This document shows, in pieces, positions 1-64,000 of a stretch of DNA of 64,000 nucleotides. Within the stretch, counting starts at the first letter, position 1; every line of letters starts with the position of its first letter. The notes beneath the pieces are model-generated. The model saw nothing but the letters and a program-made list of their open reading frames with translations. It had not been told where the DNA came from and searched no databases. A program made the translations under genes and the position numbers. This DNA comes from an uncultured delta proteobacterium (GTDB lineage: Bacteria > Desulfobacterota > Desulfobacteria > Desulfobacterales > JAHEIW01), in contig CAVPNL010000008.1 in the NCBI GenBank assembly GCA_963706575.1, positions 32,001 through 96,000 of the forward strand. The letters run 5' to 3'.

Positions 1-3000
1 TCCCAGACCGCAGATGCGGGGGCCGGAAGTCTTTCCTGGTCGCACACGGTGGGCGCCGGCAGCGAGCGTCTGCTGGTGGTGGGGGTGTCGATCCGCAACA
101 ACACCGGCCAGACGGTCTCAAGTGTGACTTACAACAGTATCGGCCTGACATATTTAAACTCTCAGAGCAACGGCACCAATGCCCGGGTGGAGATGTGGTA
201 TCTAAAGGAGTCCAATTTTCCGGGAACCCCGGGCGCCTACACTGTGGAAGTAACGTTGTCGGCCAGCGCCCGGTGTCGTGGCAGCGGCCACCTCCTTTTT
301 CAACGTGGATCAGACCACCCCCTTTGGCACCTTTGCCTCCAATACCGGGACCAGCAATCCTTTTCCAAATCCAGGCGTGACGGTCACCAATGCATCCGGG
401 AGGTAGTTGTGGCGGTTTTTGCCAAAACCCATTCTTACGGTGCGACCAAAGGCGTTTCGAACCATCAGGTCGAGCGCTGGAACCAGGCTACCGCTGACGC
501 CACCGCGGCCAACAACATCATGGGTGCAGGGGCACTGGCGACCGGATCCGGGCCGAGCGTTGGCGTCTCCTGGCAGTTGGACGATTCTACCACCCAGTAC
601 TGGGCAATCGGTGGTGTGGCAATCAAGCCCACCTCGAATGCACCGCCGCAGATCACCACCTTAACTGATTTTCCGCTGCTTTACAGCGTGACCGATACGG
701 ATTTGAGAGACAATGTCACCAGCGCCAACGGCTGGGACATTATCTTTCGCGCTTTAGATGACACAACCTGCGGCGGCGCCGGTTTGGCTCCGTGCACCCT
801 GGATCATGAAATCGAAAAATACGATTCAGGCACCGGACAAGCTGGTGGCCTGGGTCAGACTGCCTTCGGTCAACGGGGCGGCAGCCGGTTCAGATACGGT
901 CATCTATATCTATTATGGCAACAGCTGCATCACCGCTTCGCCGGAAAACAAAAACGGCGTGTGGGACTCTGATTTTATGGAAGTGTGGCACCTGGGCGAA
1001 AGTTCGGGTGCACCGGGTGACTCAACGTCAAACAATTACACGGGCACGATCGAAACGCCGGGCAACGTCACCCAGGATGCCACGGGCAAAAACACGCCCG
1101 CCTATCATTTTGCCGGCGGCTCAGGCACACCCTCATGGCTGACGCTTGACCGACGGAACCATGACCGCCAATGCCCCTTACGCTATCGAGGGCTGGTTTT
1201 ACATCGACACCACCGTGCCCACCTGGTGGGTGGGGTTTGTGACCAAGGACCGCGACACCGCCAATCCGGAGGCCACCGCCAACTGGGGAGGGCTTTGGAC
1301 CGACAGCACTGAAGCTGATTTCTTTTGGCAGCATCTACAACAAGGGCAACAATCTTGACGGCTCAACGCTTGTCGGCCGGCCAGTGGTATCATGGCGTGG
1401 CGGTCTTTGACGGCGGGCTTGCGAACCCTTTATTTGAACGGGCAACGGGATCCGGCTGCGCTGGTATCTTCTCCGACGGTCTATCTTGCCGACATGACCA
1501 TGCCTCTGCGGGTCAACCAGGACGATAGCGACGACGACAGCATGACCGGCGTGTATGATGAGGTGCGCGTCTCCACCACAGCGCGCTCACCGGGCTGGAT
1601 TTTAAGTACCTACAACAACATGAACGACCCGGGCGACATTGGCAGCCCCGGATTTTATATCTGTGGGTTCAGAGGAGGCCGATCCGCCCACGGCAATATC
1701 GTTGATCTCCTTTACCGCCAAAGGCGCAGGCGCAGCGGTGCAGGTCAACTGGCAAACGGCCCAGGAAGTGTCCAACGTGGGCTTTAACCTGTACCGGGCA
1801 GACAGCGCCGCCGGCCGTTTGTACAAGATCAACGCCAGCCTGATCCCGGCGCTGAGCTTTTCAGCTACGGGCCGAAGCTACGGCTTTGTCGACAGCAACG
1901 TGGTGTTAGGCAACCTTTATTATTACAAGCTTGAAGACATCGATGTGTACGGCAAGCGCACCTTGCACGGGCCCATCTGCGTGGACTGGGACGGCGACGG
2001 TCTGCCCGATGACTGGGAGATCAGATACGGGCTTAACCCGTGGGCAAACGATGCCAATCTCGATTCTGACGGTGATGGGCTGACCAACCTGCAAGAATAT
2101 GAGCTGGGCACAGACCCGTTTAACCCCGATACCGACGGCGATGGGATCTTAGATGGTGATGAAAGCCGCAAAGTGAGAACGCCAAGACAGCGATGGCACC
2201 CGCCAGCTTAGCCGCGGGGTGGAGGTTGTGGCCGAAGATGAATATGGCATTACCCTTGAGCTTTACACCGACACCTTTTTTACCGAAAGCGTTTATGCGG
2301 ACGGCATGGAATATGAGCGGCTTACGATCGACGATTACGTGCACGGTTACACCAGCGAGGTGGGCAAACCCGAGCTGCCGTTAAAAGGCATCCTGGTTAA
2401 TATCCCCGAAGGCCAGATCGGTGCGCTTTCCATTTTACGACCACAGTTGAGACCTATAGCGGTTATCAGATCTTTCCGGTACCGGCAAACAGCGTCGATG
2501 ATCAGGAGGGCGGCCGCGGCTGTGGCAGAAAGCTTTGTCATCGATGAAGCCGCCTATCAGCAAGATGCCTTTTACCCGCAAGCAGTCGCGCAATTAGGGG
2601 ATCTGTTTGCCTTCCGCGATCAAAACAAACAGCAGCTGCTGTTTTACCCGTTTGCCTTTAACCCGGTCACCGGCGAGCTTAACCATTACAAACGCATTCA
2701 GGTACGAATTGACTATGTCGATGATCTGTATGCCAGAGTTGAAGATCACAGCTGTTAGCCCCTGGACGGTGCCGCTGCCCGCACCATCTTCAGGCGACTT
2801 ATCCGAGCAGCTGGCATCGATGGGCACTATGGCCATGGCCTTTGGGGCATCGCCTTTGATCGTAAACCCGCTGTCGCCGGCGCTCACATCTTTGGGTGTG
2901 ATCATGGGCGCGGTGTGGTCACCGCCGGCTGATGGAGCTGCCAGCGCCTATAAGATTATGGTCGCTGAAGATGGCCTCTATCGGCTTGACAGTGCCTTTT

Positions 3001-5556
3001 TTACCAACAACGGCATTGATCCCGCCGACATCGATTTAGATACCGTGCGCATCTATCATATGGGTGAAGAAGTCGCTGTTTTGGTCAACGATGCCGACAG
3101 CCCCGGTGCCTTTGATGCCAATGATTATATCGAGTTTTACGGGCAACCGGTAGCGGATCAATATAACAAATACGCGGCCCAAAACATCTACTGGCTGGTG
3201 ACCGGTGGCGGCATTGGATCCCCCAAACGCATGGTTGCAGTCGACGGTACCCCGGCTGCCGGGCCTGTGGCTACCGAGCACAGCGCTTCTGTGCGCTTAG
3301 AAGACGATGAATACTATGTGGGGCTTGGCCCCGGGCACAAACGAGCGCGACCGCTGGTTTTTTGATGACTTTGTGCTGGGCACCGACTTTACCGGCGGGC
3401 CGACTCCGGTGCAGGTGCCCTTTGACCTCACCTTGCCGGGCGTTATCGGCTCCGGGTAATCTTACCATCTCATTGTGGGGCTATTATGACACCGGCCATG
3501 AGGTGGAAGTGTGGGTAAATGATGTGTCTCAGGGCACCTTTTAGCTGGAGCGGCGTTGCCTTTTATGAGGTGAACTTAAGCGGGCTTAATTTAACCGAAA
3601 ACACCACCGTCAAACTTGCCTGTAACACCGCCATGGACGGGTTGATCGTCGACTATATTGAGGCTACTTATCCGCAAAGCTTTGCCGCGGTCACTGACAC
3701 ACTCAACATTTAGCCACGACAGCGGCTACCGCTATATCATCGATGATTTTAGCACCGATGCGCTGCGTGTTTTTGACATCACCGACCCGGTTGATGTGGC
3801 TCAAGTGACCAACCTGCAAATTAGCGGCGCAGGTACTTTTAGCCTTGAGTTTGAACCCCCGCCCAGCGGGCTGACTGACCGCTTTGTTGTCATCGGCTCC
3901 AATGATTATAAGATCCCCGACGCCATTATCGAAGATGTACCCTCTGATCTGGCAGACACCGCCAACAGCGCCGATTACATCTTGATTACCCATCCGGATA
4001 TCGGCTGGGACGGCGGCGGTGCACAACAGGGCTGGTTAACCGATCTGGTTGCCCTGCGTGAAGATGGTGATCTTGAAGTCAAGGTGGTCGAATGTCACCG
4101 ACATCTATGATGAGTTTAGCTACGGCATCACCCACCCCGGTGGCGATCCGTGACTTTTCTGTCCTATGCCTATGAGCAACTGGCGCACGCCGGCACCCCA
4201 GTATGTGCTGTTGGTGGGTGACAGCACCTATGATTTTAAGGACAACTACAACCGGGGCACCGTAAACCATGTGCCCGCATATACGGTGTTTACCGATTAT
4301 ATGGGTGAGACCGTCACAGACGAATACTTTGTCACCATCAGCGGCGATGATGCGCTGGTCGATATGTACATCGGGCGGCTTCCGGCCCAAAGCGCAGCTG
4401 AAGCCGCAGCGATGGCTAAATAAGATCATTGCCTATGAAACCGGGCTAAACAACGGCAGCTGGGAGAAAAACATGGTGCTGGTCGCCGATGATCAGACCG
4501 AGGCCTATGAGGCGGTCTTTGAGACCATCAACGAGGATGCCGCCGCGCTGCTGCCGGCTAAGATGGTGGCCTTAAAGGGCTATTTAAACGATTATCTGCT
4601 CTCTGGTGATTTAAGCACCGACATCACCAACTGGATCAATGACGGGGCGTTAATTGTCAATTACAGCGGCCATGCCTCATTGCAGCAGTGGGCGGCAGAG
4701 GCGGTTTTTGTCAATGCCGATGCGGGCACTTTAACCAACAGCGGCAAATATCCGTTTGTGATCTCCATGAGCTGTTTGACCGGCTACTTCGGGTACCTGG
4801 ATGCCGTCGACGGCCCGGAGCCCTCGCTGGCCGAAGCGCTGCTTGCAGCCTGCCGACAAAGGGGCCGTCGCAGCGCTGATGCCAACGGGCATGACCACCA
4901 CCGCCGGTCAGCACATATTCAACAACGCGGTCTTTGAGGCTTTTTTTGTAAACGATATCAGACAAGTTGGGACCTGCGATCGCTTCAGCCAAACAAACCC
5001 TTTTAGCCAACGGCGATGCCTATTTTGAGCAGATCAGCGCAGACCTTTTTGCTCTTTGGCGATCCGGCGCAAACCTTAAAGATCCCGCTGCCGCAGAATG
5101 CCCAGCGGGGTAAAGGCCTATTGGGAAAACAACTCCGTGCGCATTCACTGGAATGCGGCCTTGGACAGCAACGGCAACGCGGTGGCCGGCTACAATATCT
5201 ATCGCGCAAGCTCCCCGGCAGGCCCCTACAGCAGGGTCAACACCGGGCTTGTCACCGGCACCGAGTTTGTCGACGCTGACGGGGCGGTGGGCATTGATGA
5301 GGGCGAAGGAAGCGGAAGTAGCTACTACGGGGTCACAGCGGTTGACAGCTTCGGTGATGAAAGTGCCCAGTCTTTAGGCATCAGCCCGGCTTCGGTTGCT
5401 TCAGCGGCACAGGCGCCGGTGGCAGCTTGTTTTGTCGGGTCTGTCAGTCAGTCTATGCCCAAACAGGGGATCTGGTTTGTCGTGCTGCTGGCCATAGCGG
5501 TGGTTATTGCCATCAGGCGCACGGTGCACGGCAAAAGAAGAAGGACTGAGGGCTGA
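1..5556 (+). CDS. Giant surface protein 1 (5' partial): SWSHT-type domain nested in DUF2341, LamG, then the C25 peptidase cassette and Cys-TM-basic tail
   Basis: ORF fragments 49-972, 758-1312, 1639-2211, 2219-2758, 2607-3365, 3658-4110, 4269-4937 and 5098-5556 join across single-base frameshifts into a product colinear with 58150-59790 (gene 4) and with the other cassette copies. Catalytic motifs are NYSGHA (His codon 4671) and SMSCLTG (Cys codon 4773). Stop is TGA at 5554-5556. Confidence 0.85.
1687..5556 (+). repeat. Conserved C-terminal cassette, copy 1 (PTA domain, DxDxDG repeats, C25 propeptide-like region, PorU/gingipain-like peptidase, FN3-like, CFV-TM tail)
   Basis: DNA is near-identical to 23634-27497, 40292-44142 and 61573-64000, for example 'caggtcaactggcaaac...gtgggctttaacctgtaccgggcagacag' and 'gactgggacggcgacgg'. 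Confidence 0.95.
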
Positions 5557-6222: not shown

Positions 6223-9200
6223 TTGATTTTAAACAATAAAATATGTCGGAGAGGGAATACGCGCCATTGTACCACCAGCGTGGGGTGGATCACCGCATCA
6301 CTGATTGCGGTGATGGTCGTTTTCGCCTCGAGCCCTGCTAACGCCGCGATCGGAGCTTCACTCGTAACCTCTATCGCTGACGGTACAGATACTTCCTCCT
6401 ATGACTTTCCTTCGGCCACTTACTCCAACAACGTTCTTTACATCGCCTTTACTTCCACTGCCTGCGGCAGCGGACAGAATTGCGGTCTTGGTGTAGACAT
6501 CGTCGCTGCAGTAGAGAGTGTCAGCGGGGCGGGATTGAATTTCACTGAGATCGGGACACCTGGCGGGGAGGTTTTCAGCACAAACGGTCGGCGCATCCAG
6601 GCCTGGCGGGCATTGGTCGCCAGCGGGGCCGGCACAGGGGCTGTCACGGTTACCATGCAAACCGGAACTATCTCTGCTTCAATGGGTGCGGCGATGATTG
6701 AGTTCACGGGCACTAAGACCAGCGGCACGAACGGCGCTGACGCTGTTGTGCAATGGCCCACGAACAGCGCCAGTGGAGTTAGCTCGCTTACCGTCAATAT
6801 GGCGGCTTTCGCCGATTCTAACAACAGGCCGGTCGCCTTCTTTTCGCACAGAGCCCAATCAGGCAGCGAGGCAACGACCCACGACACTGCGGAAGGATAC
6901 ACGGAACTGTATGACGGGCCTCATGACAGTGTTATGATGGCTGACATGGCCGAGTGGCATGCCACAGCGGCAAACACCACTCCCTCAGCTTCATGGACTA
7001 GCTCGGGTTCCACTGGCGGGTTTGCCCTGGAAATAGCAGAAGCAGGCGCTCCGGCGGCTGCCACCCTCACCCAGGCCCATGTTCGCTGGCGCAATGACGA
7101 TGGCGGGGAGTCGGGTGGTGGCTCGTGCGTTGCCGGGCCGACGGAGTATTCAACAGCTCAAGATTCAACGACGTACGTCGTTCCTACAGGGTGTGATGTG
7201 ATTACGGTAAAAGCCTGGGGTGCCGGCGGTGGCGGCGGAGAGTCGACCGGCAGCAATACCGGCGGATCCGGCGGTGGCAGCGGGTTTGCACAGACTGACC
7301 TATCGGTGACCCCCGGTGAAAATCTCACGGTCATTGTCGGCGGCGGCGGGCCCGGTGGAAGCAATGCCGGTGGTGACGGCGGTGGCGGCAACGGTGTTAC
7401 TGCTGCCGGTGGCGGTACCGGTGGCGATGCGGGAGATCCCGGTAGCGGCGATTCCGGCGGTGGTGGTGGCGGCGGAGGTTATGCAGCGGTCCTGCGCAGC
7501 GGCACCTATCTCGTGCAAGCCGGCGGCGGCGGCGGCGGCGGCGGCACCGGAAATAGCGCTGGGGATGGCGGCGCCGGGGGCGCTGGTGGTGGATCAAGCG
7601 GTCTTTCTGGCAGCACTGGTGGGGGCTCAGGTGGAGTCGGGGGTGGCGCGGGAACGGCCTCGGCCGGTGGCGCTGGCGGTGCCTTAAGCGGCTCCGCCGG
7701 CTCGGCAAACACCGGAGGCACAGGCGGCACCAATTCGGGTGACGATCCCGGCGGCGGCGGCGGTGGCGGCGCTGGACGTTACGGCGGCGGCGGCGGTGGC
7801 GCGGCTTCCCCTGAAACCGCCGGCGGCGGTGGCGGCGGTGGATCAGGTCTTGTCACCGGAACTAATACGTCACTGCAGCAAGGATCGGGTTCGACCGCGG
7901 CCAATACCGGCGATACAGACTACGCGGGCAATGCCGGGCAGGGGGGGGCTGCCGGAACAGATGGCAATCCCGGTCGAATTGTTATCATACCCAGCAGTTC
8001 CGGTGGTGGTGGCAGTATCAGTGAAACAGGAAGTGCAACAAATATAGGATCTAGTAGCGCTGCTTCAATTACACACGGCCTGACCATAAATGCCGATGAT
8101 GTGATCGTTGCCATGATTCATGTAAATACAGATAGCACTGATGTTTCTGACAACAATGGTGCTTACGCGTTTACAGAGCAAATCGACGAACCAAATGGAG
8201 GGACTTCAAGTCATTATGCAATTTATTCCAGGGTAGCCGGCGCTTCAGAACCCGCCAGCTATTCATGGAACCTTGGTGGTTCTTGGGCTTGGTCTATACA
8301 AATCCGTGTATTCTCCGGGGTAGATACTGCTACTGTCTGGGACGTAGCACCTTCCACGTCTACCAGATCTTTTGCAGGTTCAGGCACCACTGCAACCGCC
8401 CCAACCATGACCACGTCAACTGACGGTGCAATGGGAATCATTGCCTTCTTCTCCGATAGTTTGGAAACTTTTAGCAATCCCACCAATGGCTATGCAACGG
8501 AGGTTGAACCTGCCAGCAGCAGGGCTCAGGCGAGTTATATTCGCACATGGGCATCTGCGGGGGTAACAGGAACATCGAGTGCCACCCTCTCTGCTTCAAA
8601 TGACTGGCTGGCACATCAATTTGCATTAAAACCCGCGTCGGGCAGTGGTGCCACCTGGGCAGCCGACGAAGACACCAAGCTGACGGGCCTGGCTAAAAGC
8701 ACCACCAGGCGGCTGCGCTTCCTGGTGGACAATTCCGGCACCGCAAGCTCCGGGGCCGTTTCTTATGAATTGCAGGTACAGGAGACAGACACCTGTGGCT
8801 CGGGATCCTATACGGCGGTGGACTCCTCGACTCACTGGAACATCGTGGATTCCACCTACGTGACCGACGGCGCTGCTTCGGAAAATGTCAGCGGCGGTCT
8901 GACGGATCCGGGCGGCTCGTCCTGGGTAGCCGGTGAACTGGAAGACAGCGCAGATTCTCCCGACCCGATCACTCTAGCTGCCAGCGAATTCACTGAAATC
9001 GAGTTTGCCGTGCAGGCAACTGCCAGCGCCACAGACGGCGGGGACTATTGCTTTAAGCTGACCGACAGCGGGACCGATCTGGACAGTTATTCAAATTATG
9101 CCGAGGTTGCCCTTTCAGGGGGCAGCGGAGCAACGCTCAACCAGGCCCACGTCCGTTGGCGCAACGACGATGGTGCGGAGAGCGGTGGTTCGACCACTGC

Positions 9201-12200
9201 CGTTTCGGATTCGTTTACCGAGTCAGCCAACACGGTTCTTACATCCCATTCCCCGGATACAGGAACCGGCTGGACGGAGGTTTATGACAGTTCCCCGAGT
9301 GGTGATGATGCCACAGTAGTGGCCACGGAAGACATCGTAAGAGCAGGTTCGAGTGTAAACGACGTTGGGCAGGCTTATACGGCCCAACCTGCGCCGGCGG
9401 GTGTCGATCAGGATATCAGCATTGCTATAGATACTTTAATATCCGATACCGGAACCAAGCCTTTTGGACTCTTTGGAAGGCGCACGGATAACAGCAATTT
9501 CTACCACGTTCAGATTCTTCCAAATGAGCACAGTGAAGCCAGCGTTAAGCTCTGGAAGTTTGTAAGCAGCGTGGATACCGAACTGGGGTCCTATGATGCT
9601 ACGCTGGCAGTTGGTGATATCATTAAGCTCGAAATCAGGGACGCCACCAAAAAAGTTTATATTAATGGTGTCGAGCGAATTAGTTCCTCGGACAATTCCC
9701 TTACCAATGCGGGCACCTGGGGTCTCTATTTTGGAAATTATAATGGTGCCGGAGCAGGAGGCCACCTGCGGGTTGACTGGCGACTGGATAACTTTCTGGC
9801 CGAAGACCCTGGAGGAGGCTCAGGCGCTACCTTTAGCATAGACGAAGATACGGCGCTGACGGGTCTGGATAAAAACACCAACACCCGGGTCCGTTTCCTG
9901 GTGTCGAATAGCGGCGGTACGACCGCCAGCAACACCAGCTACCAGCTCGAGTTTGCCGAAGCAGCCACCTGCAGCTCCGGCTCCTACAGCGCGGTGCCTG
10001 CCACCGCCGGCGCAGGTGATAAATGGCAGATTGTGGATTCAACTCATTATACCGACCCAACGGCCACGGCAGATATTACCGACGGGGTCGACGACGCGCT
10101 GCCCAACCCGGGCGGTATGAGCTTTGTGGCCGGTGAGCTGAGGGATGACAACAGCAACAGCACCGGGGGAATTACCCTGGATCCGAACGAGTTTAGCGAA
10201 ATCGAGTTTACCATTCAGGCGACCAATGACGCCCTGGACGGCACCCATTATTGCTTTAAACTGACCGAAAGCGGAACGGATCTGGATAGTTATTCATATT
10301 ATGCAGAGGTTACCCTTTCAGGGACTCCTCCCAATTCAGCTCCAACCTTAACCGTCGATGAACCCGACGGGGCTGGCGATACGGTAACCGTCGGTGACAA
10401 CTACAACATCCAGTATGACCTGGCCGATACCGATGATGTTGTCACCGTTGCATTTTTACTATGATACCGACAACAGCGGACTCGACGGCACCGCCATAAC
10501 CGGCGCCTGTGCAGGCTGCAGCCGAAGGCACCGATGTCACCTGCAGCTGGGATACCACCGGCGTGACGCCCGGCAACTATTACGTTTACGGCATCACCGA
10601 TGACGGAACCAATCCCGCAGGTGAGTGCTTACTCGTCGGGACAAATTACCATTAATGCTGCTTCGGCCGCCACCCTCGATCAGCTCCACTACCGCTGGCG
10701 CAATGATGATGCGGGGGAGTCTGTTATCCCCCTGGATACGGGATCCGGAGCCGATGGCTCTGTGACGATTTCAGCATCTGAAAATATCAATACGGCTGTC
10801 CTGGGTTCCAGTCGTTCGACTTATGCGGACGGAATCCTAACCACGGTTACGGCAAATCCGACCGCAACCTCCATTAGCGTTACCGATACGACCGGTTTTG
10901 CGGCCGGCGATGAGATTTTATTGATCAACCTCCAGGGTGCCTCGGGCGATGTGGCAGATGTCGGTAACTATGAATTCCTTACCGTCGATACCGTCCCCAA
11001 CGGCACGACGATCAATGTAACATCGACGATTACCAAATCATACGACGGAACGACTTTTGCCAACCAAAGCATTATTGTCCAAAGGGTACCTCAATGGACG
11101 TCGGTGACCATCAATTCCGGCGGGACATTAACAGCCAATGCCTGGGATGGGACCAGCGGCGGGGTCATTGTCTTCAGGGCCACGGGGTCCGTTACTGTCA
11201 ACACGGGCGGGAAGATTGACGCCACCGGCATAGGCTACAGGGGTGGTGCCGGCGGTACGAGTGACGGCGGAAACAACGGCGAGTCTTACGACGGTCAGAA
11301 TGGGAAAGGCGGTGCCGATGACTCACGGGGCACGCTGGGCGGAGGCTCAGGTGAGAACTACCCAACCCAAGATAACACTACCGGCACCCGCGGCGGTGGT
11401 GGCGGTGGTGGTGAAACCGGTAGTATAGGCCAGGGTGGCGCAGGCGGAGGTGGTGGCGGCTACGGCGGCGGCGGCGGCGGTGGCGGCGGAGGTACAGATA
11501 CAGACAACTATATTTCAGGCGGCGGTGGAGCCGGCGGAACCACCGGCGATAGCGCAGGCGGCGGCGGCCACGGTGAAAACAGTGGCACCTCCGGCGATGG
11601 AGGATCTGCCGGTAACCCGGGCAACGATGGAGGCGTAAGCGTGGCCGTGGGCGGCGGTTTGGCCGGTAGCGGTACAACCACCGGCCAGGGCGGTCATTCT
11701 GAGGACGCCTCAGATTCCCCGGGCGGTGGCGGCGGTGGCGGTGGGAGCTACGGTATTGCGAACCTAACTCAGATTTTTTGTGGCTCAGGCGGTGGCGGTG
11801 GCGGCGATTCCGGTGCGGTTACGGGAGACGGGGAAACCGGAGGCGCCGGCGGGGGCATCATTTTCATCATTGCCGACACGGTTGATAATAACGCGACTAT
11901 CCAATTGCAGGGCGCGGACGGGGTAGACGCTACGGACGGGGACGGCGCGAGCGGTGGCGGTGCCGGCGGCAGTCTCTTGATCCAGGCGAACACGGTTGAC
12001 AATACTGGCGGCACGATTACCGCTGCCGGAGGCACTGGTGGAGCTGTGGATACGAATGATGACGCCGGCGGTGGCGGCGGCGGCGGCGTCGGTCGCATCC
12101 GTATCGAAGCCGATACGATCATTGGCACCAGCACCCCGGCTGCATCAACGAGCGGCACTCCTACTTCGGGAAGTAGCGCAAGCTGGGCAGCCGACGAAGA

Positions 12201-43700: not shown

Positions 43701-44142
43701 TGCGGCCTATTGGGAAGGTAACAATGTGCGCATCAGCTGGAATGCAGCCTTAGATAGCAACGGCAACGCGGTTGCGGGCTACAATATCTATCGCGCATCT
43801 GCCCCGGCTGGTCCTTACAGCAGGGTCAACACCGAGCTTGTCACCGGCACTGAGTTTGTCGACACAGACGGTGCTGTGGGCATCGATTCTGGCGGTGGCG
43901 GCAGCTCCGGCAGCTATTATGGGGTTACAGCGGTTGACAGCTTCGGTGATGAAAGTGCGCAGTCTTTAGGCATTAGCCCGGCTTCGGTTGCATCAGCGGC
44001 CGAGGCACCGGTGGCAGCCTGTTTTGTGGGTACGGTGACCGGGTCAATACCGGCGGGGCTGTTCTGGATTTTGGCAATCTTTACCAGCGCTGTGATTGTC
44101 GCCCATTGGCGCTCCCGCTATATGCGGGATTTCACTTCTTGA
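28762..44142 (+). CDS. Giant surface protein 3 (~5,100 aa): signal peptide, DUF2341/LamG modules, beta-helix modules, three Ig-like 'NQTP' spacers, SVQRG-repeat domains, C25 peptidase cassette, TM tail
   Basis: [56 protein letters not shown] is a signal peptide followed by a DUF2341 start. ORFs 29167-30069, 29928-30533, 31470-32903, 32746-40269, 40136-42370, 42240-43010 and 43393-44142 join. An alternative start lies at 28720. His codon 43263, Cys codon 43365. Confidence 0.85.
40292..44142 (+). repeat. Conserved C-terminal cassette, copy 3
   Basis: Starts [28 protein letters not shown] and ends [40 protein letters not shown]. Confidence 0.95.
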
Positions 44143-44200
44143 TTAGATATATTAAGGTGTTCAAACGGCACACGGCGCACGGTAAAGCGGAATGAATGAA

Positions 44201-44291: not shown

Positions 44292-44392
44292 AAAAAATAA
44301 GGTGGCCCTTCGTAGCCGCCAATCGATGGCCGGCGCCCATCTTCGCCCTATCGGGCTACGCAAGGGCACGTGGTGGTAGACTCTACGCTCCC

Positions 44393-44991: not shown

Positions 44992-44994
44992 ATT

Positions 44995-45544: not shown

Positions 45545-45682
45545 GCTAAATATTTAAATTTATTTGAAATATTGTTAGTGGAAGCTTTGCAAGCTGCAAA
45601 TTGGGGGGCGAATGAAGCCAACATCATCAAAAAATGATTCAGAATCCATTTATTAGCAATATCAACCAGCCGCTTTTCAGCA

Positions 45683-51600: not shown

Positions 51601-54600
51601 CGGTCACAAACAAAGACGGCGGTACACCCGCAGCAGCTTCAGCGGGAACATCGGTGGGTGTTTATCGGGCCTACACCTCGCTAAGCAACTGGGAATCACA
51701 GACCGAAAATGCAAACATCACCGAACCCACCGAAGATGATGTCAACCCTTCAGTGGACCTGACTGCAGCCACCGGCGATAATACCATCATGATGGTGGCC
51801 TGCTACGGCGATGGAGAAGACACGGCTTCTACTTTTATTGATAGCTGGACCACGGGGCCGGACAACTATATCAAGATCTATACGCCGGTTTCTTTGAGCG
51901 AGGTTGGCACGAGCCAGCGGCACAATGGAATCTGGGATACCTCGGCCTACCGCATATCAATGGACGGGACTTATTTCGCTCCGATAGGGATACGGGAGCG
52001 TTACGTCCGTATCGATGGGCTGCAAATAGATAGTAATCTTGAGTATAATAATGAATCGAACGGAATTCATGTCAGTGATGATAATGCTGATGCCGCGGTG
52101 GAGATTCATATTTCCAATTCAATTTTTCGGATGACGAGCGCCCCCCCAACTACCGCGGCATTTGGTATTGGCGCCTTGAATCAGTTTGGTGGAGCGAACA
52201 GCCTTTACGTTGCCAAAGTATGGAATAACATCATCTATGGCTATGCTGTTAGCGGCGGTGGCGGTAACTGTATATACGCTCAAAATAACGGCACCGTTTA
52301 TGCTTACAACAACACGTGTGTCGGCGGCAGTGGGGCTGGAAACGGGATAGCGGCATGGGATAATATAGATTTCTATGCCAAAAATAACATCTCTGTTGAT
52401 TTTACGGATCCATACAAAAATACTTTTCACGCGGACAGTACCAATAATGTCTCCGATATCGGGGATGCACCGGGCAGCAACCCGATCAATGGAGAGCCCA
52501 CTTTTGCCAATAAGGCCGGAAATGATTATCACTTAGACAGCAGTGATACAGTGGCGCAGGGGGCAGGCGCGAACCTCGAGTGGGACGCCATTCTCCCCAT
52601 CACCGACGACATCGACGGGGATGCCCGCCCGACCGGCGCCAATACCTGGGACATCGGTGCGGATGAGTATCCAGTCAATCCGAACTCATCGCCCAGCGCT
52701 CCCACAACGCCTTACTGCGACGATAACACTTCCCAGAGCGGGCAGACGAATCCGAGCGGTATTACCGACCCCACCCCGGCTTTCAGCGCGATTTACAATG
52801 ACCCAGATTCAGGGGACATTGCAAACAAGTACCGGGTGGAAGTCAACACCGCCAGCGATTTTGGCGGCACGGAGATGTGGGATTCGGGCGCCGGCGGCAC
52901 CAGCATGACCAACACCACCGCAGGCGATCGCTGCCCGGATATCACCTATGCGGGCACGGCCCTGGCCAGCGACACCACCTATTACTGGCGCATTACCTTC
53001 TGGGACGATGATGACACAGTAGGTACGGTAAGCGTCACCCAAAATTTTACCACCGGGACGATTCCCACCAGCACCAAAAGCTGGGGTGAAAATAGCAGCA
53101 GTAATGATTATACCAGTGTTACCGAAGACACCTTTATGGACTCGGGCAGCAATGACCAGGAGGAAGGTTCATGTACCGGCAATGATGCCGTTCGAATCGG
53201 CTACAGAACCGATGCCGGCACACGCGCCATGCGGTCTTTGATAAAATTTGACCTTACTCAACTTGGCAACCTCATTTCCAGCACCAGCGATATTGTCTCA
53301 GCGACACTAAATGTAAAGATAGGCCAGAAAAACGGCAATGATATCGATGTGGATGCCTTCCGGGTATTGAAAAGCTGGAGTCAGGGCGACGAATGCCATA
53401 ACGTGGCCGAATCCGGTGAAACCACCTGGCGTTATCAGTCTTACAACGGCACGGAGTGGACATCATGGGGCGCGGATAGTGCCGGTAACGACCGGGCCAG
53501 CAGTGCTGATGATACCACCACAATAACTGCATCAGGCTGGGTTTCTTGGGATGTCACCCAGTCCGTTAAAGATATGGTCGTCGACGGTAACTACGACGGC
53601 TGGGTACTTAAGTCCCAGAGCGAAAGTGGAACCAATTGGTCCGCCTTTTATAGCAGCGAACACAGCACTGAAGCCGACCGGCCCTATCTGGAAATCACGT
53701 ATAACAATGATACAGCCTGCGGCTATGCTTACAAGCGGGCCATCACCATCTGATCACAACGATGTCATCGGCGACAGCGGTGATACGGTGGATCTGATCG
53801 ATTTTCCGGTCGTGATAAAAGAGTCCGGCACCTGGCTCAGAAACAGCGGCTACACCGACGGGCGCATCGAAAATGGGAATGGCTATGACATCATCTTCAA
53901 AGATTCCACCGAAACGCTGACCCTGGCGCACGAAATCGAGTATTATTATGAAGGATCGGAGGCCGCCAATGGAGAACTGGTGGCCTGGGTGAAAATCCCC
54001 ACCCTGGATGCGGATGCCAATACCGTCATTTACATGTACTACGGCAACAGCTGTGTTACGGCAGAAACTCAAGATAAAACCGCGGTGTGGGATACCGCTA
54101 ACGGCTGGCGGGGGGTCTGGCATTTGAAAGAAAGCACCGGGACGCAATGCAATGACAGCACCTCAAATGCCAACAATGGAACACCCAGTTCACCGGAACC
54201 ACCGGAGCAGGTATCAGGAAAGTTCGATGGGAGCCTTTACTTCGATGATGACGGTGATGCCAATGAGCGCAACATTTTGGTTTCGGACGACGACAACAGC
54301 CTCGACCTGCCCTCCGCCATGACAGTCTCTGCCTGGGTGAAGACCGCCGATACGGATCCGGATGTCGGTGTCATCCTGATGAAATGGTCTGACACCGCAT
54401 CACAGAAAAATTACTGGCTCGGCAAACTGAATGACACCAGCATTGCTTTTTATGTGGACGATTCGGAGAATGTGACGGCCTCATTGAGCCTCATCAATGA
54501 TGGAACCGACTTCCACCACGTCGTGGCTGTCGCCGATCCGACCGGCGGCTCCGAAGAGTTGCGGATTTATGTTGATGGTATTGAGAGAAATTTCGTTGTC

Positions 54601-57600
54601 TGGGACGGAACTTCCAGGACCGAGGATGCAGATTTTCGAATTGGAAATAGTACGACGGTCTTGCAGGAATTTGGAGGTACGATTGACGAGGTCCGCGTTT
54701 CCAGCGTCGTGCGCACCGACGGCTGGATTCAAACTTCATTCAATAACCAGGACGATCCCTCTGCTTTTTATGGAATTGGCGGTGAAGGTCCTGTCGGCGG
54801 CACAGCCGACCTTGATCAAATTCACTACCGCTGGCGCGACGATAATGGCGGCGAGACAGGCGGGTTTGATACCGGCACGGGTGTTGATGGATCGGTTACC
54901 ATCGCGACTTCAAAAAATCTCAATACCGATGTGCTTGGATCCCTTCGCTCCACCAACCCTGATGGCATCGCTACTGCAGTTTCTTCATTTGGCAGCGCCA
55001 CCGGCGGCACAACGCTTACAGTAGCATCGGCAAGCGGCTTTGCAGCTGATGATGAAATTTTGCTGATAAATCTTCAGGGGGACGCCACCAACTACGGAAA
55101 TGTCGGCAATTATGAGTTTCTTGAGATCCAGTCCATATCGACCAATACCTTTACGTTTAAGACCGCGATCCAGAAGATATACGGCGCGACGACTTCAAAT
55201 TTAGATTTGACGGGTCAAAAAGTGTTCGTCCAGCGTGTTCCGCAATGGACCGATGTGACCATCGAAGACGGCGGAATCTTAATGTCTGATTACTGGATCG
55301 CTTCAAAAGGCGGTGTCGTCGCTTTTAGAGCCACCGGTGCGGTTACCGTAAATACCAATGGCAGGATCTGGGCTGAAGGTAACGGATACAGGGGAGGGCC
55401 TCAGAACACAGATGCGTCCGTGGACTCGTGGCGCTATAAAGGCGAGGGTTTTATCGGCGGTTTCAGCACTGCAGGATCAGACGGGTCGGCCAACTCAGAA
55501 GGCGGGGGACCGGGCCATTCGGACGGAGATAATGACGTTGGCACGGGTATCGGTGGTGGTGGCGGCGGCGGTTACGGATCGACGGGATCTGACGGAACAA
55601 TTACCCAGGGAACCGGTTTTGAAGGTTTAGGCGGAAGCACCTATGGCGCTCTGGAGCTCACCAAATTATACCTGGGCTCGGCCGGCGGCAGCGGCGGACA
55701 CGATACCGATGCTGCCGGCAGAAACGGCGGGGCTGGCGGCGACGGCGGCGGTATCATTTTTATTGCAGCCGATACCATAATCGTCAACGGTACGATTACC
55801 GGTGACGGTGAAGACGGAAATGCGAGTACCGACGCCGGGTGCGGCGGCGGCGGGGGTAGCGGCGGATCAATCCTTCTTCAGGCGAACACGGCAACATTGG
55901 GCACGAATAAAGTCACCGCTGTCGGGGGTTCCGGGGCAGCTGGATTAAGATCCTGTGATGGCGGCGCTGGCGGGGTCGGGCGCATCCGGGTTGAAGTGGA
56001 TGCCGCCAACCTGTCCGGTACGACCAATCCAACGGCCTCTGAGGCGGACACGCCAGATTCAGGGACGGGTGCCGACTTCCTGGAAGATCAAGACACTCCC
56101 CATACGGGGCTTGACAAATCCACGACGATTCGTCTGAGACTGGAAGTTTCCAATGAAGGCGATGTATTCGCGGATTCTGTTCAATACCGTCTCGAGTATG
56201 CCACATCCACCGGCGGGCCCTGGACAGCGGTGCCCGACACGGCCACAACCGAACACTGGCAGATGTCTGCTTCCGACTATATCAGCGACACCGGAGAAGC
56301 GACGACGGATATTACCGGCGGACTGACCAATGAAAATACCACATTTATGCCCGGAGAGCTCAGAGACAACACCGCCATAACTAACGGCATTACTCTGTCG
56401 GCGATTCAATTCACAGAAATTGAATATTCCATCGAAGCTACCTTCAATGCCACCAATAGCGGGACCTATTACTTCCGTGTAACCAATAGTGGTTCATCGA
56501 CCGACTTTAGCTATTCGGTTTATCCAGAGGTGACACTTAGTTGCGGGTATGCTTACAGACGGGCCATCACCATCGATCACACCAAGGTCATCGGCGACAG
56601 CGGCGATACGGTTGATCAGATCGATTTTCCCGTAGTGATAAATGAATCTGGAACCTGGCTCAGAAACAGCGGCTACAGCGACGGACGCATCGAAAATGTT
56701 AACGGCTATGACATTATCTTCAAAGATGCCACCGAAACAACTACCCTGGCGCACGAAATCGAATATTACAACGCCGGCTCCGAGGCTGCCAACGGGGAGC
56801 TGGTGGCCTGGGTAAGGATCCCCACTCTTGATGCGGATGCAAATACCGTCATTTATATGTATTACGGCAATAGCTGCATTGTAAGCACAACAGAAAATCC
56901 GGCCGGGGTTTGGGCCAATGGGTATGTGGGGGTATGGCATCTTCATGATGATTACAACGACAGTACCTCAAATGCTAATCATATGACTGCTTCTGGAACG
57001 CCGTCTTATACGTCCTCCAAGATTGCCGGCGGCGTCGATTTTGATCAGAGTGGGGCTAACCAGTATCTGAGTCGCACAGACGCCAATTGTGTGGAAATTC
57101 CGGGAAAAAGCGACGGCAGCGGCGCCGATGATTTTACCTTCAGTCTCTGGATGAACCTAGATGATGAAACGACAAGGCATCCGTTTATGTCAAAGCAGTC
57201 ATCTGCCGCCGGGCGCGGTTACGTCTTTTCGAGAGAGGATTCTAACGATACCTATAAAGGGTATATGGAGGTTTACAACTCCAGCTTTGCCCAACACAAT
57301 ATTTATTCAGATTCGCTCAACCAGGACAAATGGTACTACGTGGTGGGAATTTACGATGGTGTCGACGATCTGACGCTCTATATTGCTGACGAAACCGGTT
57401 GGCTAACCAACTCCCCCTGGACTGCAAACCAGCCCAGCCATGGCGCTCCTCGCGACAACACCGCAGATTTTCACATCGGCCGCTATTACTGGGATGCAGG
57501 TAACAATTATCATTTAGACGGAACGCTGGATGAAGCCCGAATTTCCAATACAGTTCGAAGCCAGGGGTGGATTGAGACCGAATACAACAACCAGACCGCT

Positions 57601-60600
57601 CCATCTACTTTTTACGGAATGGGCGGTGAAGGGCCTGTCGGCGGCAACTTTGCACCCACGGCACCAACGACACCTTACAGTAACAATAATACCGCCCAGA
57701 GCGGTGCGACCAACCCGAGCGGGATTACCGATACCACCCCGGCATTCAGCGCCATATACAACGATCCGGATTCAGGAGACATTGCAAACAAGTACCGCGT
57801 GGAGGTCAACACCGCCAGCAATTTTGGCGGCACGGTGATGTGGGATTCGGGCGCATCGGCGGCACGAGCATGGCAAACACCACTGCGGGCAACCGCTGCC
57901 CGGACATCATCTATGCGGGCTCGGCGCTGGAGGATAGCACCACCTATTACTGGCGCATTACTTTCTGGGACGATGAGGGCACCGAAGGGACGGTAAGCGC
58001 CACCCAGAATTTTACCACCGGTGCGATTTCATGCTATGAGCTTTTTGACTACCGCAAGTCAATCACCATTGATCGGAGCAAGATTGCCAACCCGGCCCTG
58101 TTGGCGATCGCCTTTGATGCGGTTTCCAGCGCCGAGACGGTTCCGGCCGGCGGGGCCACCAGCCTGACCTGGTCGCACACCCTCGGCTCCGGACAGGACC
58201 CGATCCTGGTTGTGGGGGTGTCCATTAGAAACAACAGCAGCCAGCAGGTGAGCTCTGTCACCTACAATGGAACCGCTCTGACCAAAATAGACGTCGTGGA
58301 CAACGCCACCTACGTTCGCGCAGAGCTGTGGTATTTGCCAAAGGCGAGCTTGCCGGCTCCGGGGACCTACGATGTTGTGGTCAACATGACGGCGACCGCC
58401 AGGTTTGTTGCCGGCGCGTTTTCTTTGTTCAACGTGGACCCGACCACGCCTCTGGGCACCTTTGCCTCCAATACCGGAAGCGGGAATCCCACCTGGGCCG
58501 CTTCTGTGGATGTTCCCAGCGCGAGCGGCGAGATCGTGGTTGGAACCCTTGCCAAGCAATACGACGATCCGGTCAAGCCGGAGCAGGGTCAGCACCAGGC
58601 TGATCGCTGGAATCACACGACCAACGACGCTTCCGCCAACAACGTGCTGGGAGTCGGGACCCTGAGAGGCGGCGAAGCTCCCAATGCATCACCATACTGG
58701 GCGCTGGGTGGGACGACCAACGGTCAGCAGTGGGCGATCGCCGGGGTGTCGGTCAAACCGACGACAGAAGCTGCGCCCCAGATCACAACCCTCACGGATT
58801 ATCCGCTGCTTTACAGCGTCACCGATTCCGACATGCAAGCGAATGTAATCAACGCCAACGGGTGGGACATTATCTTTCACGCTTCAGATGATACCACCTG
58901 CGGTGGCGCCGGGCTGGCCCCGTGCATCCTGGATCATGAAATCGAAAAATACGATCCGGCTACCGGCAAGCTGGTGGCCTGGGTTCGGCTGCCTTCGGTC
59001 AATGGGGTGGGGGCGACTTCAGATACGGTTATTGATATCTCCTACGGCAACACCTGTATCAGCGCACCGACGGCCAACAAAACCGGGGTGTGGGATTCTA
59101 ATTATATGGAAGTGTGGCACCTTAGCGAAAGCTCCGGCGACGCCAGCGACTCGACTTCCAACGGTTACGTCGCTGCGGTGCAGGCCGACCCGGGGACACC
59201 GACCCATCCGGATGCCAAGATCGGCGGCGGCTACCAATTTGCCGGCGACTCCTGGCTTTTGACCAACGACGGCCAGTTTGCCGTGGCCAACGCACCGCTG
59301 ACCATAGAAGGCTGGTTTCACATCGACAGCGGAACCCCGAGCTGGGTGGGGATCGCCACCAAAAACCGTGATGTGAGCTGCTCCGACAACCCGCCCTATT
59401 GCGACTGGGCCGGGGTCTGGATCGGCGGCTCCGGTGAGCTGACCTACGCGTGGGACTGGCACAACCAGGCCAACATTGAAGGCGGTGCCGCGCTTTCCAC
59501 AGGTACCTGGTACTACGGTGCCATCACCTTCGATGGCGGGATTCGCACCGGCTTTCGAAACGGTCTGCGCGACACCGTCGTGACTTCGCCCAACCCCAGT
59601 CCCGGCACCTATACCGATATGACCATGCCCACCCGCATGAACAAAGACCTGGACGGCGGCGGCATGATGAGCGGCATCATCGACGAGGTGCGCATCTCCA
59701 CCGCAGCGCGCACACCGGGCTGGATCTTAAGCTCCTACAATAACATGAACAACCCGGGCGACATTGGAAGCCCCGGCTTTTATACGGTGGGGCCTCAAAT
59801 CGATGAGAGCTGCAATGACCCATTTGCCTACCGGCGGCTGATCACCATCGATCATAACGAGGTGGGATTGGACAACAATCCGGGCAGCCTTACGAATTTC
59901 CCGGCGCTGGTCAGCCTGTCGGGAAGCTGGTTGCGGACCACTATCGCAGACCCTACCAAGGGACGGATAGAACATTACAAGGGCTGGGACATCGTATTCA
60001 GAGCTTCCGACGAAGTCACCCATCTGGATCATGAGATCGAATACTACGACGGCTCGGCATCCGGCGGTGATGTCACCCGGATTGACAGCTGGAGCACCGG
60101 CACCGGGGATCCCACCGGTCCATACACGGTGCCGGCCGGCAGCAATCGGCTGCTGGTTCTTGTCACCGCCTTAGAGTGCAGCGCCACTCTCCGCACCATT
60201 GACGGGGTAACTTTCGGCACCACGCCCATGACGCGGGCCGAAACAACATACCTGGAAGGATCTCCGGGAAATTACATCAAAGTGGAGATCTGGTACCTGA
60301 AAGATGCCGACATTCCGGCGGGCAGCCAAAGCTTTGACATCAGTTACAGTTCAGCCCCGACAGCTGCACTGCACGCCTGGGCAACATTTGAAAATGTCGA
60401 TCAGATCAACCCGCTGGTGCACAAAAACACAGGCTCCGATGCCAATCCTGTTGAGGCTGCAGTCGATGTAGTCGACGGTGGAATGTCGGTTGCAGGCGTC
60501 ATATGCGGTATTGGGCAACAGATCTTATACCTGGGGAAACGGCTGGTCTGAGACCACGGACGAGGACGATACGCTCCGGGTTGTGTCGACGGCGGAGCAC

Positions 60601-63600
60601 GCCGCAGCGGCAGACGGTACCGATACCGCCAGTGCGACTGTTAGTGTCACCGTCCCATGGCAGACGCTTGTCGTTGCCAGTCTGCGGCCGTCATCGGCCG
60701 GCGATCTGGTGGCCTGGGTGCGTATCCCCAGCCTTGCCAAGAATGCCGATACCCAGATTTACATGTACTACGGCAACAGCTGCATTGCCAACAACACCGA
60801 AAATCCGGCAGGCGTCTGGGTCAACTACGCCGGTGTGTGGCACTTAACGGAAAACGGCAGCGGAGCTGCCGGTGAATTCAAAGACAGCACCCAATACGGC
60901 AATCACGGACAGGGGGGTGAAGGGGTTTCTCAATTTATTCCCACCCGGGTAGCCGGCAGGATAGTTACGGGCAGGATTTTGTCATTACACCGTGATAGTA
61001 ATGCAAATGGGAGCGGACGAAGGACAATTAATTGATTGTGGAAATGATGCCAGCCTGGATATCAGCGGTAATGAAATTACGCTTGAGGCCTGGGTTAAGC
61101 ATTCGATCGTTCCTGACTTTGGTGATTGGTACGGGATTCTGAATCACAAGGGTTGGGACTACGGTTATCGCATATTTATTCCTGACAATAGTCTTAAGCT
61201 CAAGTTTTCAGCTTCCCGGAGATACGGATAGCCTTATCTAGCGCCGGGGATATTACTTGCCGGGGGCTGGCATCATGTTGTCGCCACTTATGATGGCGCC
61301 AATATGAGGATTTATATCGATGGCGTAAAAGACGCAAATGAAAGGTCTAAACCGAGGTAATATTGAATCCGTGCCGCCGGACGGAAAATGAAGTCTGGAT
61401 CGGGCACGGTGATCAGCCAAAGGACGTGGCATGGAGTTATCCATGGGAGGGCCAGATCGACGAAGTCCGCATTTCTGCGACTGCCCGATCGGCGGACTGG
61501 ATTGCCACCGAATACAACAACCAGAGCTCATCGCTTACGTTTTTGAGTGTGGGTGCCGAGGATGCTGGCGCGCCCACCGCGTTAGTCTGATTTCCTTTAC
61601 GGCCAAAGGCGCGGGGCAACGCGGTGCAGGTCAACTGGCAAACCGCCCAGGAAGTGGCCAACGTGGGCTTTAACCTGTACCGGGCAGACAGCCCCAGCAG
61701 GTCAGTTTAAAAAGATCAACAACAGCCTGATTCCGGCGCTGAGCTTTTCAGCTTCAGGCAGATCCTACGGCTTTACCGACACCAACGTGGTGTTAGGCAA
61801 CCTTTATTATTACAAGCTTGAAGACATCGACATTTACGGCAAGCGCACCATGCACGGGCCCATCTGCGTGGACTGGGACGGCGACGGGCTTCCCGATGAC
61901 TGGGAGATCAGACACGGGCTCAACCCCTGGTTAAATGATGCCAATCTTGATTCTGACGGCGACGGGCTGACCAACCTGCAAGAATATGAGCTGGGCACCG
62001 ACCCGTTTAACCCCGATACCGACGGCGACGGGATATTAGATGGCCAGGAAGCCAGGAAGCGAGAAAGCCAGGAAGCTGATGGAACGCGCCAGCTTAGCCG
62101 CGGGGTGGAGGTTGTGGCTGAAGATGAAAATGGGATTACCCTTGAGCTTTACACCGACTCCTTTTTTACCGAAAGCGTTTATGCCGACGGTATGGAATAT
62201 GAGCGGCTTAAGATCGATGATTACGTGCACGGTTTTAGCAGCAGAAGTGGGCAAACCCGAGCTGCCGCTAAAAGGCATCCTGGTCAATATCCCCGAAGGG
62301 CAGATCGGTGAGCTGTCCATTTTACAGACCGTCGTTGAGACCCATAGCGGTTATCAGATCTTTCCGGTGCCGGCAAACAGCGTTGATGATCAGGGTGACT
62401 GCAGCCGCTGTGGCAGAAAGCTTTGTTATCGATTCTGAGGCCTACGCCACAGATGCCTTTTACCCGCAAGCAGTCGCGCAGTTAGGTGATCTGTTTGCCT
62501 TCCGTGATCAAAACAAACAGCAGCTGATCTTTTACCCGTTTGCCTTTAACCCGGTCACCGGCGAGCTTAACCATTACAAACGCATTCAGGTAAGAATCGA
62601 CTATGTCGATGACCTGTTTGCCAAAGTTGAAGATCAAAGTGTTAGCCCCTGGACGGTGCCGCTGCCCGCACCATCTTCAGGGGATCTGTCCGAGACACTG
62701 GCCTCGATGGGCTCTTATGCCATGGCCTTTGGGGCATCTCCGTTGATTGTAAACCCGCTGTCACCGGCGCTGACCTCTTTGGGTGTGATCATGGGCGCGG
62801 TGTGGTCACCGCCTGCTGATGGGGCAGCCAGCGCCTATAAGATTATGGTCGCAGAAGATGGCCTTTATCGGCTTGACAGCGCCTTTTTTGCCAACAACGG
62901 CATTGATCCCGCCGACATCGATTTAGATACCGTGCGCCTCTATCATATGGGTGAAGAAATCGCTGTTTTGGTCAACGATGCCGACACCCCCGGTGCCTTT
63001 GATGCCAACGATTATATCGAGTTTTATGGCAGCAGCCGGTAGCGGCTCAATATGCCAAATACGCGGCCCAAAACATCTACTGGCTGGTGACCGCTGGCGG
63101 CATCGGATCGCCCAAACGCATGGTCACAGTCGATGGTAGCCCCGGCAGCCGGGCCGGTGGCCACCGAGCACAGCGCTTCTGTGCGCTTAGAAGACGATGA
63201 ATACTATGTGGGGCTGGCCCCGGGCACAAACGAGCGCGACCGCTGGTTTTTTGATGACTTTGTGCTGGGCACTGACTTTACCGGCGGGCCAAATCCGGTG
63301 CAGGTGCCCTTTGACCTCACGCTTGCCGGGAGTTATCGGCTCGGGTAATCTGACCATCTCGTTGTGGGGCTATTATGACACCGGCCATGAGGTGGAAGTG
63401 TGGGTCAATGATGTGTCCCAGGGCACTTTTAGCTGGAGCGGCGTTGCCTTTTATGAGGTGAACTTGAGCGGGCTTAATTTGACTGAAAACACCACCGTAA
63501 AACTAGCCTGTAACACCGCCATGGACGGGCTGATTGTCGATTATATCGAGGCCACTTACCCGCAAAGCTTTGCTGCGGTCGCTGACAGCCTCACATTTAG

Positions 63601-64000
63601 CCACGACAGCGGCTACCGCTATGTCATCGATGATTTTAGCACCGATGCCCTGCGTGTTTTTGACATCACCGACCCAACTGATGTGGCCACAGGTCACCAA
63701 CATGCAAATTAGCGGCGCAGGTCCTTTTAGCCTTGAGTTTGAACCGCCGCCAAGCGGGCTGACCGACACGCTTTCTTGTCATCGGCACCGATGATTATAA
63801 GATCCCTGAGGCGATCATCGAAGATGTACCCTCTGATCTGGCCGACACCGCCAACAGCGTCGATTACATCTTAATTACCCACCAAGACATCGGCTGGGAC
63901 GGTGGTGGTGCGCAATATGGCTGGTTAACCGATCTGGTGGCCCTGCGTGAAGATGGTGATCTTAGAAGTTAAGGTGGTTAATGTCACCGACATCTATGAT
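45683..64000 (+). CDS. Giant surface protein 4 (3' partial, >6,100 aa): signal peptide, mosaic of modules shared with genes 1-3, C25 cassette starting at ~61573 and running off the window
   Basis: [34 protein letters not shown] is a signal peptide; the true start may be slightly upstream (ATG 45634) if frameshifted. ORFs 45683-46657, 46581-50636, 50627-51529, 51405-53753, 53551-57996, 57840-60551, 61787-62311 and 62308-63042 join. Confidence 0.83.
61573..64000 (+). repeat. Conserved C-terminal cassette, copy 4 (truncated by the window end before the catalytic His/Cys)
   Basis: Starts [15 protein letters not shown] and is colinear with the other copies up to 'gttaatgtcaccgacatctatgat'. Confidence 0.93.

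Follow-up and report, generated by a model that had tools for sequence, protein, structure and literature searches.

Four consecutive giant genes in a Desulfobacterales contig, each with a predicted PorU-like C25 peptidase and a candidate Thr-Ala cleavage site behind a variable passenger

The window analysed here is the whole of a 64,000-nucleotide stretch from an uncultured delta proteobacterium (assembly GCA_963706575.1, contig CAVPNL010000008.1, positions 32,001 to 96,000 of the forward strand). An initial annotation, made from the letters alone, had described a tandem array of giant genes in it, and the array is real: four consecutive genes lie on the plus strand, about 15.3–21.3 kb in length and coding for about 5,100–7,100 amino acids (aa). 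Its picture of a variable passenger plus a constant C-terminal cassette within one chain is supported as well. What could such genes be for? We propose that each makes one secreted chain, in which a PorU-like peptidase likely cuts the glycan-binding passenger off at a conserved Thr-Ala bond and may join it to a surface amine, a predicted scheme towards which we lean slightly. The features of the array, in window coordinates, are as follows.

1..5556, plus strand: 3' part of giant gene 1 (about 5,300 aa), which starts upstream of the window at about -10374
1690..5556, plus strand: cassette 1, made of the Thr-Ala junction with its FN3 domain, TSP3, Propeptide_C25, PorU-type N-terminal segment, C25, FN3, Cys-Phe-Val (CFV) motif, transmembrane (TM) helix and basic tail
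1690..1995, plus strand: candidate site T-A-I and the uncatalogued FN3 domain that open cassette 1, with equivalents at 23637, 40295 and 61576
4671, 4773 and 5425-5439, plus strand: His, Cys and CFV motif of cassette 1
6223..27497, plus strand: giant gene 2 (about 7,100 aa; start codon uncertain), with DNRLRE/CBM96, LamG, beta-helix, Ig_Rha78A_N, DUF2341 and AgmC-like segments in its passenger
23637..27497, plus strand: cassette 2 (His 26621, Cys 26723, CFV motif 27372-27386)
28762..44142, plus strand: giant gene 3 (about 5,100 aa), with a LamG, DUF2341 and Ig_Rha78A_N passenger
40295..44142, plus strand: cassette 3 (His 43263, Cys 43365, CFV motif 44017-44031)
45634..64000, plus strand: giant gene 4 (about 6,600 aa; start uncertain), ending at 65424 beyond the window, with a Polysacc_lyase-like N-terminus and LamG, DUF2341, DNRLRE and AgmC-like segments in its passenger
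61576..64000, plus strand: 5' part of cassette 4 (full extent to 65424), whose two catalytic motifs fall beyond the window, at 64544 and 64649

All long open reading frames (ORFs) of the window are on the plus strand and the largest has 2,507 aa, so none of the copies that the initial annotation called complete is an open frame in the present assembly. A codon-model read-through, with X at the breaks, gives 15.9, 21.2, 15.3 and 19.8 kb for genes 1–4 with no stop, and all four products have exactly two hydrophobic segments, a signal-like N-terminus and a C-terminal TM tail. Self-comparison of the window yields four repeats of 3.3–3.9 kb at 86–90% DNA identity, together with many shuffled shorter repeats. 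The cassette is 1,284–1,297 aa long where measurable, in agreement with the earlier figure of about 1,290 aa, but the words 'near-identical' were too strong for copies that agree at 82–88% in protein and 86–90% in DNA. Comparison of the copies shows that the passengers are mosaic. No Pfam match was found in the first 1,400 aa of gene 2, and it is the lectin-type domains that suggest the name adhesin for the passengers. Homologous proteins are labelled 'C25 family cysteine peptidase' in the database, and the named close homologs are from Desulfobacterales. Short intergenic repeats (window 28160-28210 and 44120-44270) are common to many contigs of related organisms, with depth peaks and loose ends.

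Is the fusion of passenger and peptidase genuine? There are 25, 25, 17 and 23 single-frame breaks in genes 1–4, 90 in 72 kb, and 70 of the 90 are a single extra base. Such a number might point to pseudogenes, or to an array that is itself an assembly artefact, but that explanation is scarcely credible. The read-through requires no nonsense codon, the upstream neighbours (glycosyltransferase and PilY1-like genes) are broken in like manner, and the copies differ by 10–14% in DNA and are therefore too divergent for a duplication artefact. At 9 of the 10 breaks modelled in cassette 2 the extra base is missing from short-read contigs that come from related strains (with 35 further indels beyond those displayed), and so it is at 5 of 5 in 39500-44500, among them a break that immediately precedes the start of the cassette. 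The frameshifts thus look like assembly errors. In gene 2 the passenger and the cassette start share a single ORF (18198-23771). The peptidase, present in 26 of 61 relatives' genomes, is found there inside stop-free frames of 4500, 3428, 2999, 2987, 2454, 2371 and 2332 aa; the syntenic locus G007:C74 has a single 2,999-aa gene with a different (FG-GAP) passenger, and 69 of 120 homologs among the matches listed have at least 2,000 aa. The cassette is therefore not a separate gene with its own start, an outcome which the initial annotation had named as fatal to its view, since the relatives' open frames fuse passenger and C25. The fusion is supported by relatives and by related strains' short-read contigs rather than by polished reads of the source strain. 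A contig scan queried with a frameshifted piece returned only 6 distant loci.

Where in the chain would the passenger be separated? Conservation across 120 listed homologs rises sharply at one Thr, which opens the cassette. The P1 residue is Thr in 118 of 118 homologs with this region, and P1' is Ala in 106, Val in 9, Ser in 2 and Thr in 1; the junction pattern required V or I after P1', and conservation at P2' is therefore built in. Note that PorU cleaves between T/E/D/N and G/A/S (PMC10202324), that V, L or I follow its cleavage position (PMC4560394), and that it cuts in the linker preceding the folded beta-sandwich (PMC11969387) of the C-terminal domain (CTD) of type IX secretion system (T9SS) cargo, whose fold is described in PMC11285876. 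No Pfam or NCBIfam match of note, TIGR04183 and PF18962 included, covers the 100 aa that follow the Thr. Their predicted structure is an FN3 sandwich (pLDDT 85), with the Thr (residue 28) in coil just ahead of strand 1 (residues 30-40) and after a low-confidence linker. A fold search with this model gave FN3 domains as top matches (3MPC, Z 11.6, rmsd 2.1, 92 aligned) and no T9SS CTD among the 50 matches listed. Complex prediction for the FN3 domain with the C25 region gave a score of 0.01. Five contigs match gene 3 from 40293 and diverge before it, as expected for a passenger swap point. From the sequence, the T-A bond before the leading FN3 domain is a concrete candidate for self-cleavage.

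The enzyme itself is found by Pfam PF01364 (Peptidase_C25) at 31-98 bits in window pieces and 251-300 bits in intact relatives, with a cut-off of 23. Pieces of it lie in three cassettes inside the window and in the fourth just beyond, while Propeptide_C25 (46-62 bits, cut-off 22) and TSP3 are in all four; the Pfam search advised by the initial annotation thus finds one or both C25 models above cut-off in pieces of every cassette. The motifs NYSGHA and SMSCLTG, reported before as intact, are so at 4659/4764, 26609/26714 and 43251/43356, and also in the fourth copy at 64544/64649, just past the window. Their catalytic His and Cys align to those of PorU 6ZA2, 4IEF and 1CVR (RgpB included), and of 71 aligned rows 70 retain the His and 68 the Cys, the latter being replaced by Ser in three stand-alone C25s. 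An intact relative's cassette matches PorU 6ZA2 (E 2e-16), RgpB and the RgpB prodomain. The resemblance to PorU-type C25 proteins, seen earlier by eye, is borne out by NF033707, which aligned over about positions 4-739 of its 1095 at 248-303 bits; in four relatives' cassettes it scores 216-303 bits, below its cut-off of 420, and the match stops at about position 739. The predicted enzyme is a hybrid, with a gingipain propeptide followed by a PorU N-terminal segment and catalytic domain. In a FastTree tree the Desulfobacterales-type copies group together, some truncated rows being labelled by assumption. The order of parts is the reverse of that in gingipains, as had been stated, because the C25 sits C-terminal to the passenger and not in the order protease, adhesins, CTD. 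The absence of a T9SS CTD holds as well, with TIGR04183 in 0 of 7 Desulfobacterales genomes and in 3 of 3 control genomes by the same search. SprA and GldN were found in 0 of 5 genomes, by searches without a positive control and with genome G000 at 92% completeness; GspD is above cut-off in 5 of 5.

Could the enzyme simply digest external protein in the gingipain manner, with the passenger staying on as an arm that binds particles or matrix? The gingipain propeptide and the wealth of binding modules in the passengers would suit such a tethered nutritional protease, and in sediment studies C25 genes are taken to encode exoenzymes that degrade protein (PMC6752024). We consider it unlikely, though by no means negligible, as it sits poorly with the PorU-type N-terminal segment and leaves unexplained both the invariant junction Thr and the separate cargoes found beside stand-alone C25s. 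Moreover, D163 of RgpB, which we take to be the acidic S1 residue for Arg/Lys, aligns to Val in a variable column (V/A/D/I/T or gap), with moderate confidence since this pairwise alignment lies in a gapped stretch.

If the leading FN3 domain is a sorting signal, is it also found apart from the giant genes? A search with the domain returned 2,036 representatives at E 1e-30 or better, FN3 repeat proteins included. Among proteins of 311-991 aa, a length window that excludes the fused giants, the best 120 of 354 matches all end at most 70 aa from the FN3 domain, which stands behind unrelated domains with no C25 motif; P1 in these best 120 is Thr in 107, Asp in 4 and Asn in 3. Named carriers among the matches of this length are Chloroflexota, Brocadia and Thermodesulfobacteriota. 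The 79 metagenome C25 loci comprise 20 fused, 21 cut off and 38 scored as stand-alone by script, 5 of which look like broken fusions. In two of them separate cargo genes directly precede the enzyme:

L121:787-10011: three separate polymorphic secreted cargo genes, ending in T-A-FN3 and an R/P-rich tail, directly before a stand-alone C25
L122:1883-11113: the same layout, again with three cargo genes

In 121 Acidobacteriota genomes, C25 is present in 35 of 36 with the domain vs 19 of 85 without. Two Acidobacteriota genomes (G114 and G123; L168, L169) have many fused passenger-FN3-C25 genes, with 14 C25 matches in G114, which end at the catalytic domain and have no anchor. No free FN3-tailed cargo was found in G000 or in 20 stretches of relatives, where 12 of 12 strong matches lie in or run into cassettes, most of them at contig ends; trans sorting within this group is therefore not supported.

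Some loci split the domain. The L096 cargo (11236-11871) ends in the first FN3 strand and a TM segment only, beside a stand-alone C25, and small TM-anchored FN3 proteins without the first strand lie beside stand-alone C25s in L099 (11234-11725), L116, L117, L119 and L120. These strand-only tails and strand-less partners could mean that the strand serves for non-covalent docking of the donor-strand type, that the C25 matures only its own propeptide and that passengers are not released. The frequent Leu at P1 outside Desulfobacterales and the Ser for Cys in three stand-alone C25s would agree with docking, but the domain is whole in the fused form and needs no docking, yet its Thr is invariant, and the Thr is kept in 4 of 4 fused Acidobacteriota copies examined. 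We regard docking as very improbable.

In all four genes the end consists of ACFVG followed by a brief linker, a helix of hydrophobic residues and a basic stretch. The CF[IV] motif is present in 115 of 120 homologs among the matches listed, and relatives often read GGGGCFI. Of these 120, 39 end at most 25 aa from the motif (some are truncated) and up to 39 are without the helix; in 8 the tail is long, for example a receiver domain. Sorting signals that contain a Cys and are cut by CPBP proteases have this layout of Cys motif, TM helix and basic tail (10.1101/2023.06.07.544157, PMC11980579). In G000 a search for such signals gave one clear other CFI-tailed protein (C18), a count limited by frameshifts. 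At L003:6550-8673, on the minus strand, a CPBP intramembrane protease with a weak MrtJ/MrtS match adjoins a HEAT-repeat membrane protein with a weak CFI_box_CTERM match, and these are candidate processing genes for the CF[IV] tail. The linker before CFV (window 5425, 27372 and 44017) reads AVAA or PVAA in the window vs GGGG in relatives, a shifted reading of the same GGC-GGT DNA that is seen in short-read relatives too.

The array lies inside a polysaccharide locus, within a split cassette that resembles those for peptides made on the ribosome and modified after translation (RiPPs), with a RiPP recognition element (RRE), radical SAM protein, kinase, S26 peptidase and peptide. The neighbouring blocks are:

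L001:7565-11936: upstream part of the RiPP-like cassette, with ABC transporter, radical SAM/SPASM and S26 peptidase genes
L001:12589-20000 and the start of L002 (window -19400 to -11600): type IV pilus minor pilins and a PilY1-like gene, directly upstream of gene 1
L003:1713-4875 (window 65713-68875): downstream part of the RiPP-like cassette, with a PqqD-like RRE, a 54-aa YxKPxL peptide (three Cys, ending in Ser), an HprK-like kinase and NTP_transf_5

Might the C25 act in trans on the peptide product, trimming or ligating the modified three-Cys peptide while the passengers merely position the enzyme? The array is set between the two parts, RiPP-like genes occur in 35 of 79 C25 loci and in 17 of the 26 that span 12 kb or more, and the three-Cys peptide family is conserved and recurs in over a dozen C25 loci. 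However, the RiPP-like cassette has its own S26 leader peptidase, as do the clusters for linear polyphosphorylated peptides (LPPs), in the text of whose paper neither C25 nor radical SAM occurs (PMC13381572), and second-locus copies (G000 C6, G007 C8, G015 C80) lie among two-component genes without a RiPP-like cassette. Action on the peptide as sole function is thus quite improbable; it is compatible with our proposal of passenger release, in which the co-encoded peptide could be the acceptor. The G000 copy at the second locus is a fifth gene (G000:C6:185945-193904, minus strand), which carries a receiver-type tail resembling CheY behind its TM helix; homologs with PF00072 are among the listed matches, and relatives hold two copies at that locus. 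Elsewhere on this contig, G000:C6:389207-393280 holds two secretin-like units within one 1,894-aa open frame.

Several observations weigh against the release of passengers at Thr-Ala or against its wider extension. There is nothing unusual in the FN3 fold of the leading domain, and the alignment of solved FN3 structures to the model starts at residues 24-28; FN3 domains normally begin here, therefore the junction Thr may be a structural N-cap. The column of PorU Arg722, proposed to favour amines (PMC4560394), reads G in 47, S in 19 and A in 5 of 71 rows with no Arg, and because of this self-transpeptidation is predicted with less certainty than self-cleavage. At the other end of the cassette, NF041763 scores 15.2 and 13.4 vs a cut-off of 15.9 in intact same-genus relatives and does not match the window tails, the neighbouring CPBP gene scores 39-44 bits vs the MrtJ cut-off of 75, and CPBP genes occur in 2 of 79 metagenome loci. 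A separate protein with C-terminal FN3 is near only 7 of the 38 stand-alone C25 loci, and L121 and L122 are near-copies, with almost the same enzyme and different cargoes. The co-occurrence in Acidobacteriota is owed largely to the fusion itself, and related genomes are not independent; in 19 chosen non-fused proteins of this phylum the junction residue is Thr in 5 and Leu in 12, and only 10 have the domain at most 31 aa from the end. Bacteroidota/Ignavibacteria forms read LPVEL at the junction, and in Herpetosiphon a plasmid-encoded protein that carries the domain has a classical sortase in its neighbourhood and no annotated C25 within 15 kb.

How, then, might the system work? The chain would be exported by its N-terminal signal and held by its C-terminal helix, the two hydrophobic segments seen in each gene. 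The Cys-Phe-Val motif probably receives a lipid and undergoes trimming by a CPBP protease, and by analogy with MYXO-CTERM a type II system, of which GspD is present, would deliver the protein to the surface. The propeptide and the PorU-type N-terminal segment may keep the enzyme latent until delivery. His and Cys would then cleave the T-A bond, the FN3 domain acting like a T9SS CTD as a signal after the scissile bond. The acyl-enzyme might be resolved by water, which sheds the passenger, or by an amine on either a glycan of the surface or the co-encoded peptide; this last step is the least supported, and ligation to an amine is predicted with perhaps half the confidence given to the proposal as a whole. 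Recombination reshuffles passengers before the constant cassette, as the mosaicism shows, and selection presumably favours this. A broader and more tentative scenario, which we hold to be possible but doubtful, is a T9SS-independent C25 sortase system across Desulfobacterota, Acidobacteriota, Chloroflexota and Brocadia. Its signal would be T-A-[VI]-x-L-x-x-F, cut between T and A, plus FN3, and it would take three layouts: separate cargoes with a free enzyme, cargo tails completing a strand-less partner, and self-sorting giants (cargo, signal, enzyme, anchor) whose passenger becomes ligated to an acceptor at the surface, for which the co-encoded modified peptide is a possibility.

To our knowledge, PorU has been described solely as a component of type IX secretion. 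With a fused form that acts on itself and has a candidate site, PorU-type chemistry could be tested in a single soluble fragment of 1,150 aa, with no machinery for secretion; such a form would define a sorting signal that is new and in neither Pfam nor NCBIfam, and a self-contained Thr-Ala ligase, if true, would be a tool for protein engineering. In one sediment study C25 genes accounted for >40% of the peptidases predicted to be exported, and a digestive role was assigned to them (PMC6752024); should many C25s serve in sorting, protein degradation is overestimated by such counts. The literature covered, which excludes subscription papers, supplements and the PorU structure paper (PNAS 2021), yielded no account of the architecture or of the T-A-FN3 signal. 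What appears new, on sequence grounds, is the invariant Thr at the cassette start that matches the PorU consensus, ahead of an uncatalogued FN3 domain found C-terminally in unrelated secreted proteins. The initial annotation had missed the CFI-box-like Cys-Phe-Ile/Val tail, the leading FN3 as a C-terminal domain in other phyla and the flanking RiPP-like cassette.

It is instructive to set the array beside known systems. The LPP clusters (PMC13381572) share with its flanks the RRE, HprK-like kinase, NTP transferase, S26 peptidase, ABC transporter, YxxPxL precursor and polysaccharide locus, whereas the array locus adds radical SAM/SPASM, the three-Cys peptide and the giant C25 genes. The signals MYXO-CTERM/MrtX, JDVT-CTERM/MrtJ and CFI-box NF041763 have the cassette's Cys motif, TM helix and basic tail, with a CPBP gene nearby and GspD present; however, the cassette tails match no MYXO-, JDVT- or Synerg-CTERM model, and the CFI model is sub-threshold. 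Like the gingipains RgpA, RgpB and Kgp, the cassette genes have Propeptide_C25, a C25 domain, adhesin-type modules and presumed autoprocessing, but a 350-aa PorU-type segment lies between propeptide and catalytic domain, the S1 acid is unconserved and there is no CTD. With PorU (PG0026, the C25 signal peptidase/sortase of T9SS) the cassette shares the N-terminal segment and the catalytic domain with aligned His and Cys; its candidate site fits T/E/D/N before the bond and G/A/S-[VLI] after it, and in both the bond precedes a beta-sandwich. Unlike PorU, it lacks a T9SS CTD, detected T9SS markers and Arg722, its signal domain is an FN3 unscored by TIGR04183/PF18962, it carries a gingipain propeptide and a Cys-TM tail, and its enzyme is fused behind cargo and signal, one enzyme for each cargo. 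The cassette enzyme thus appears to be a PorU-like member of the C25 family which, by the features tested, is neither PorU nor gingipain.

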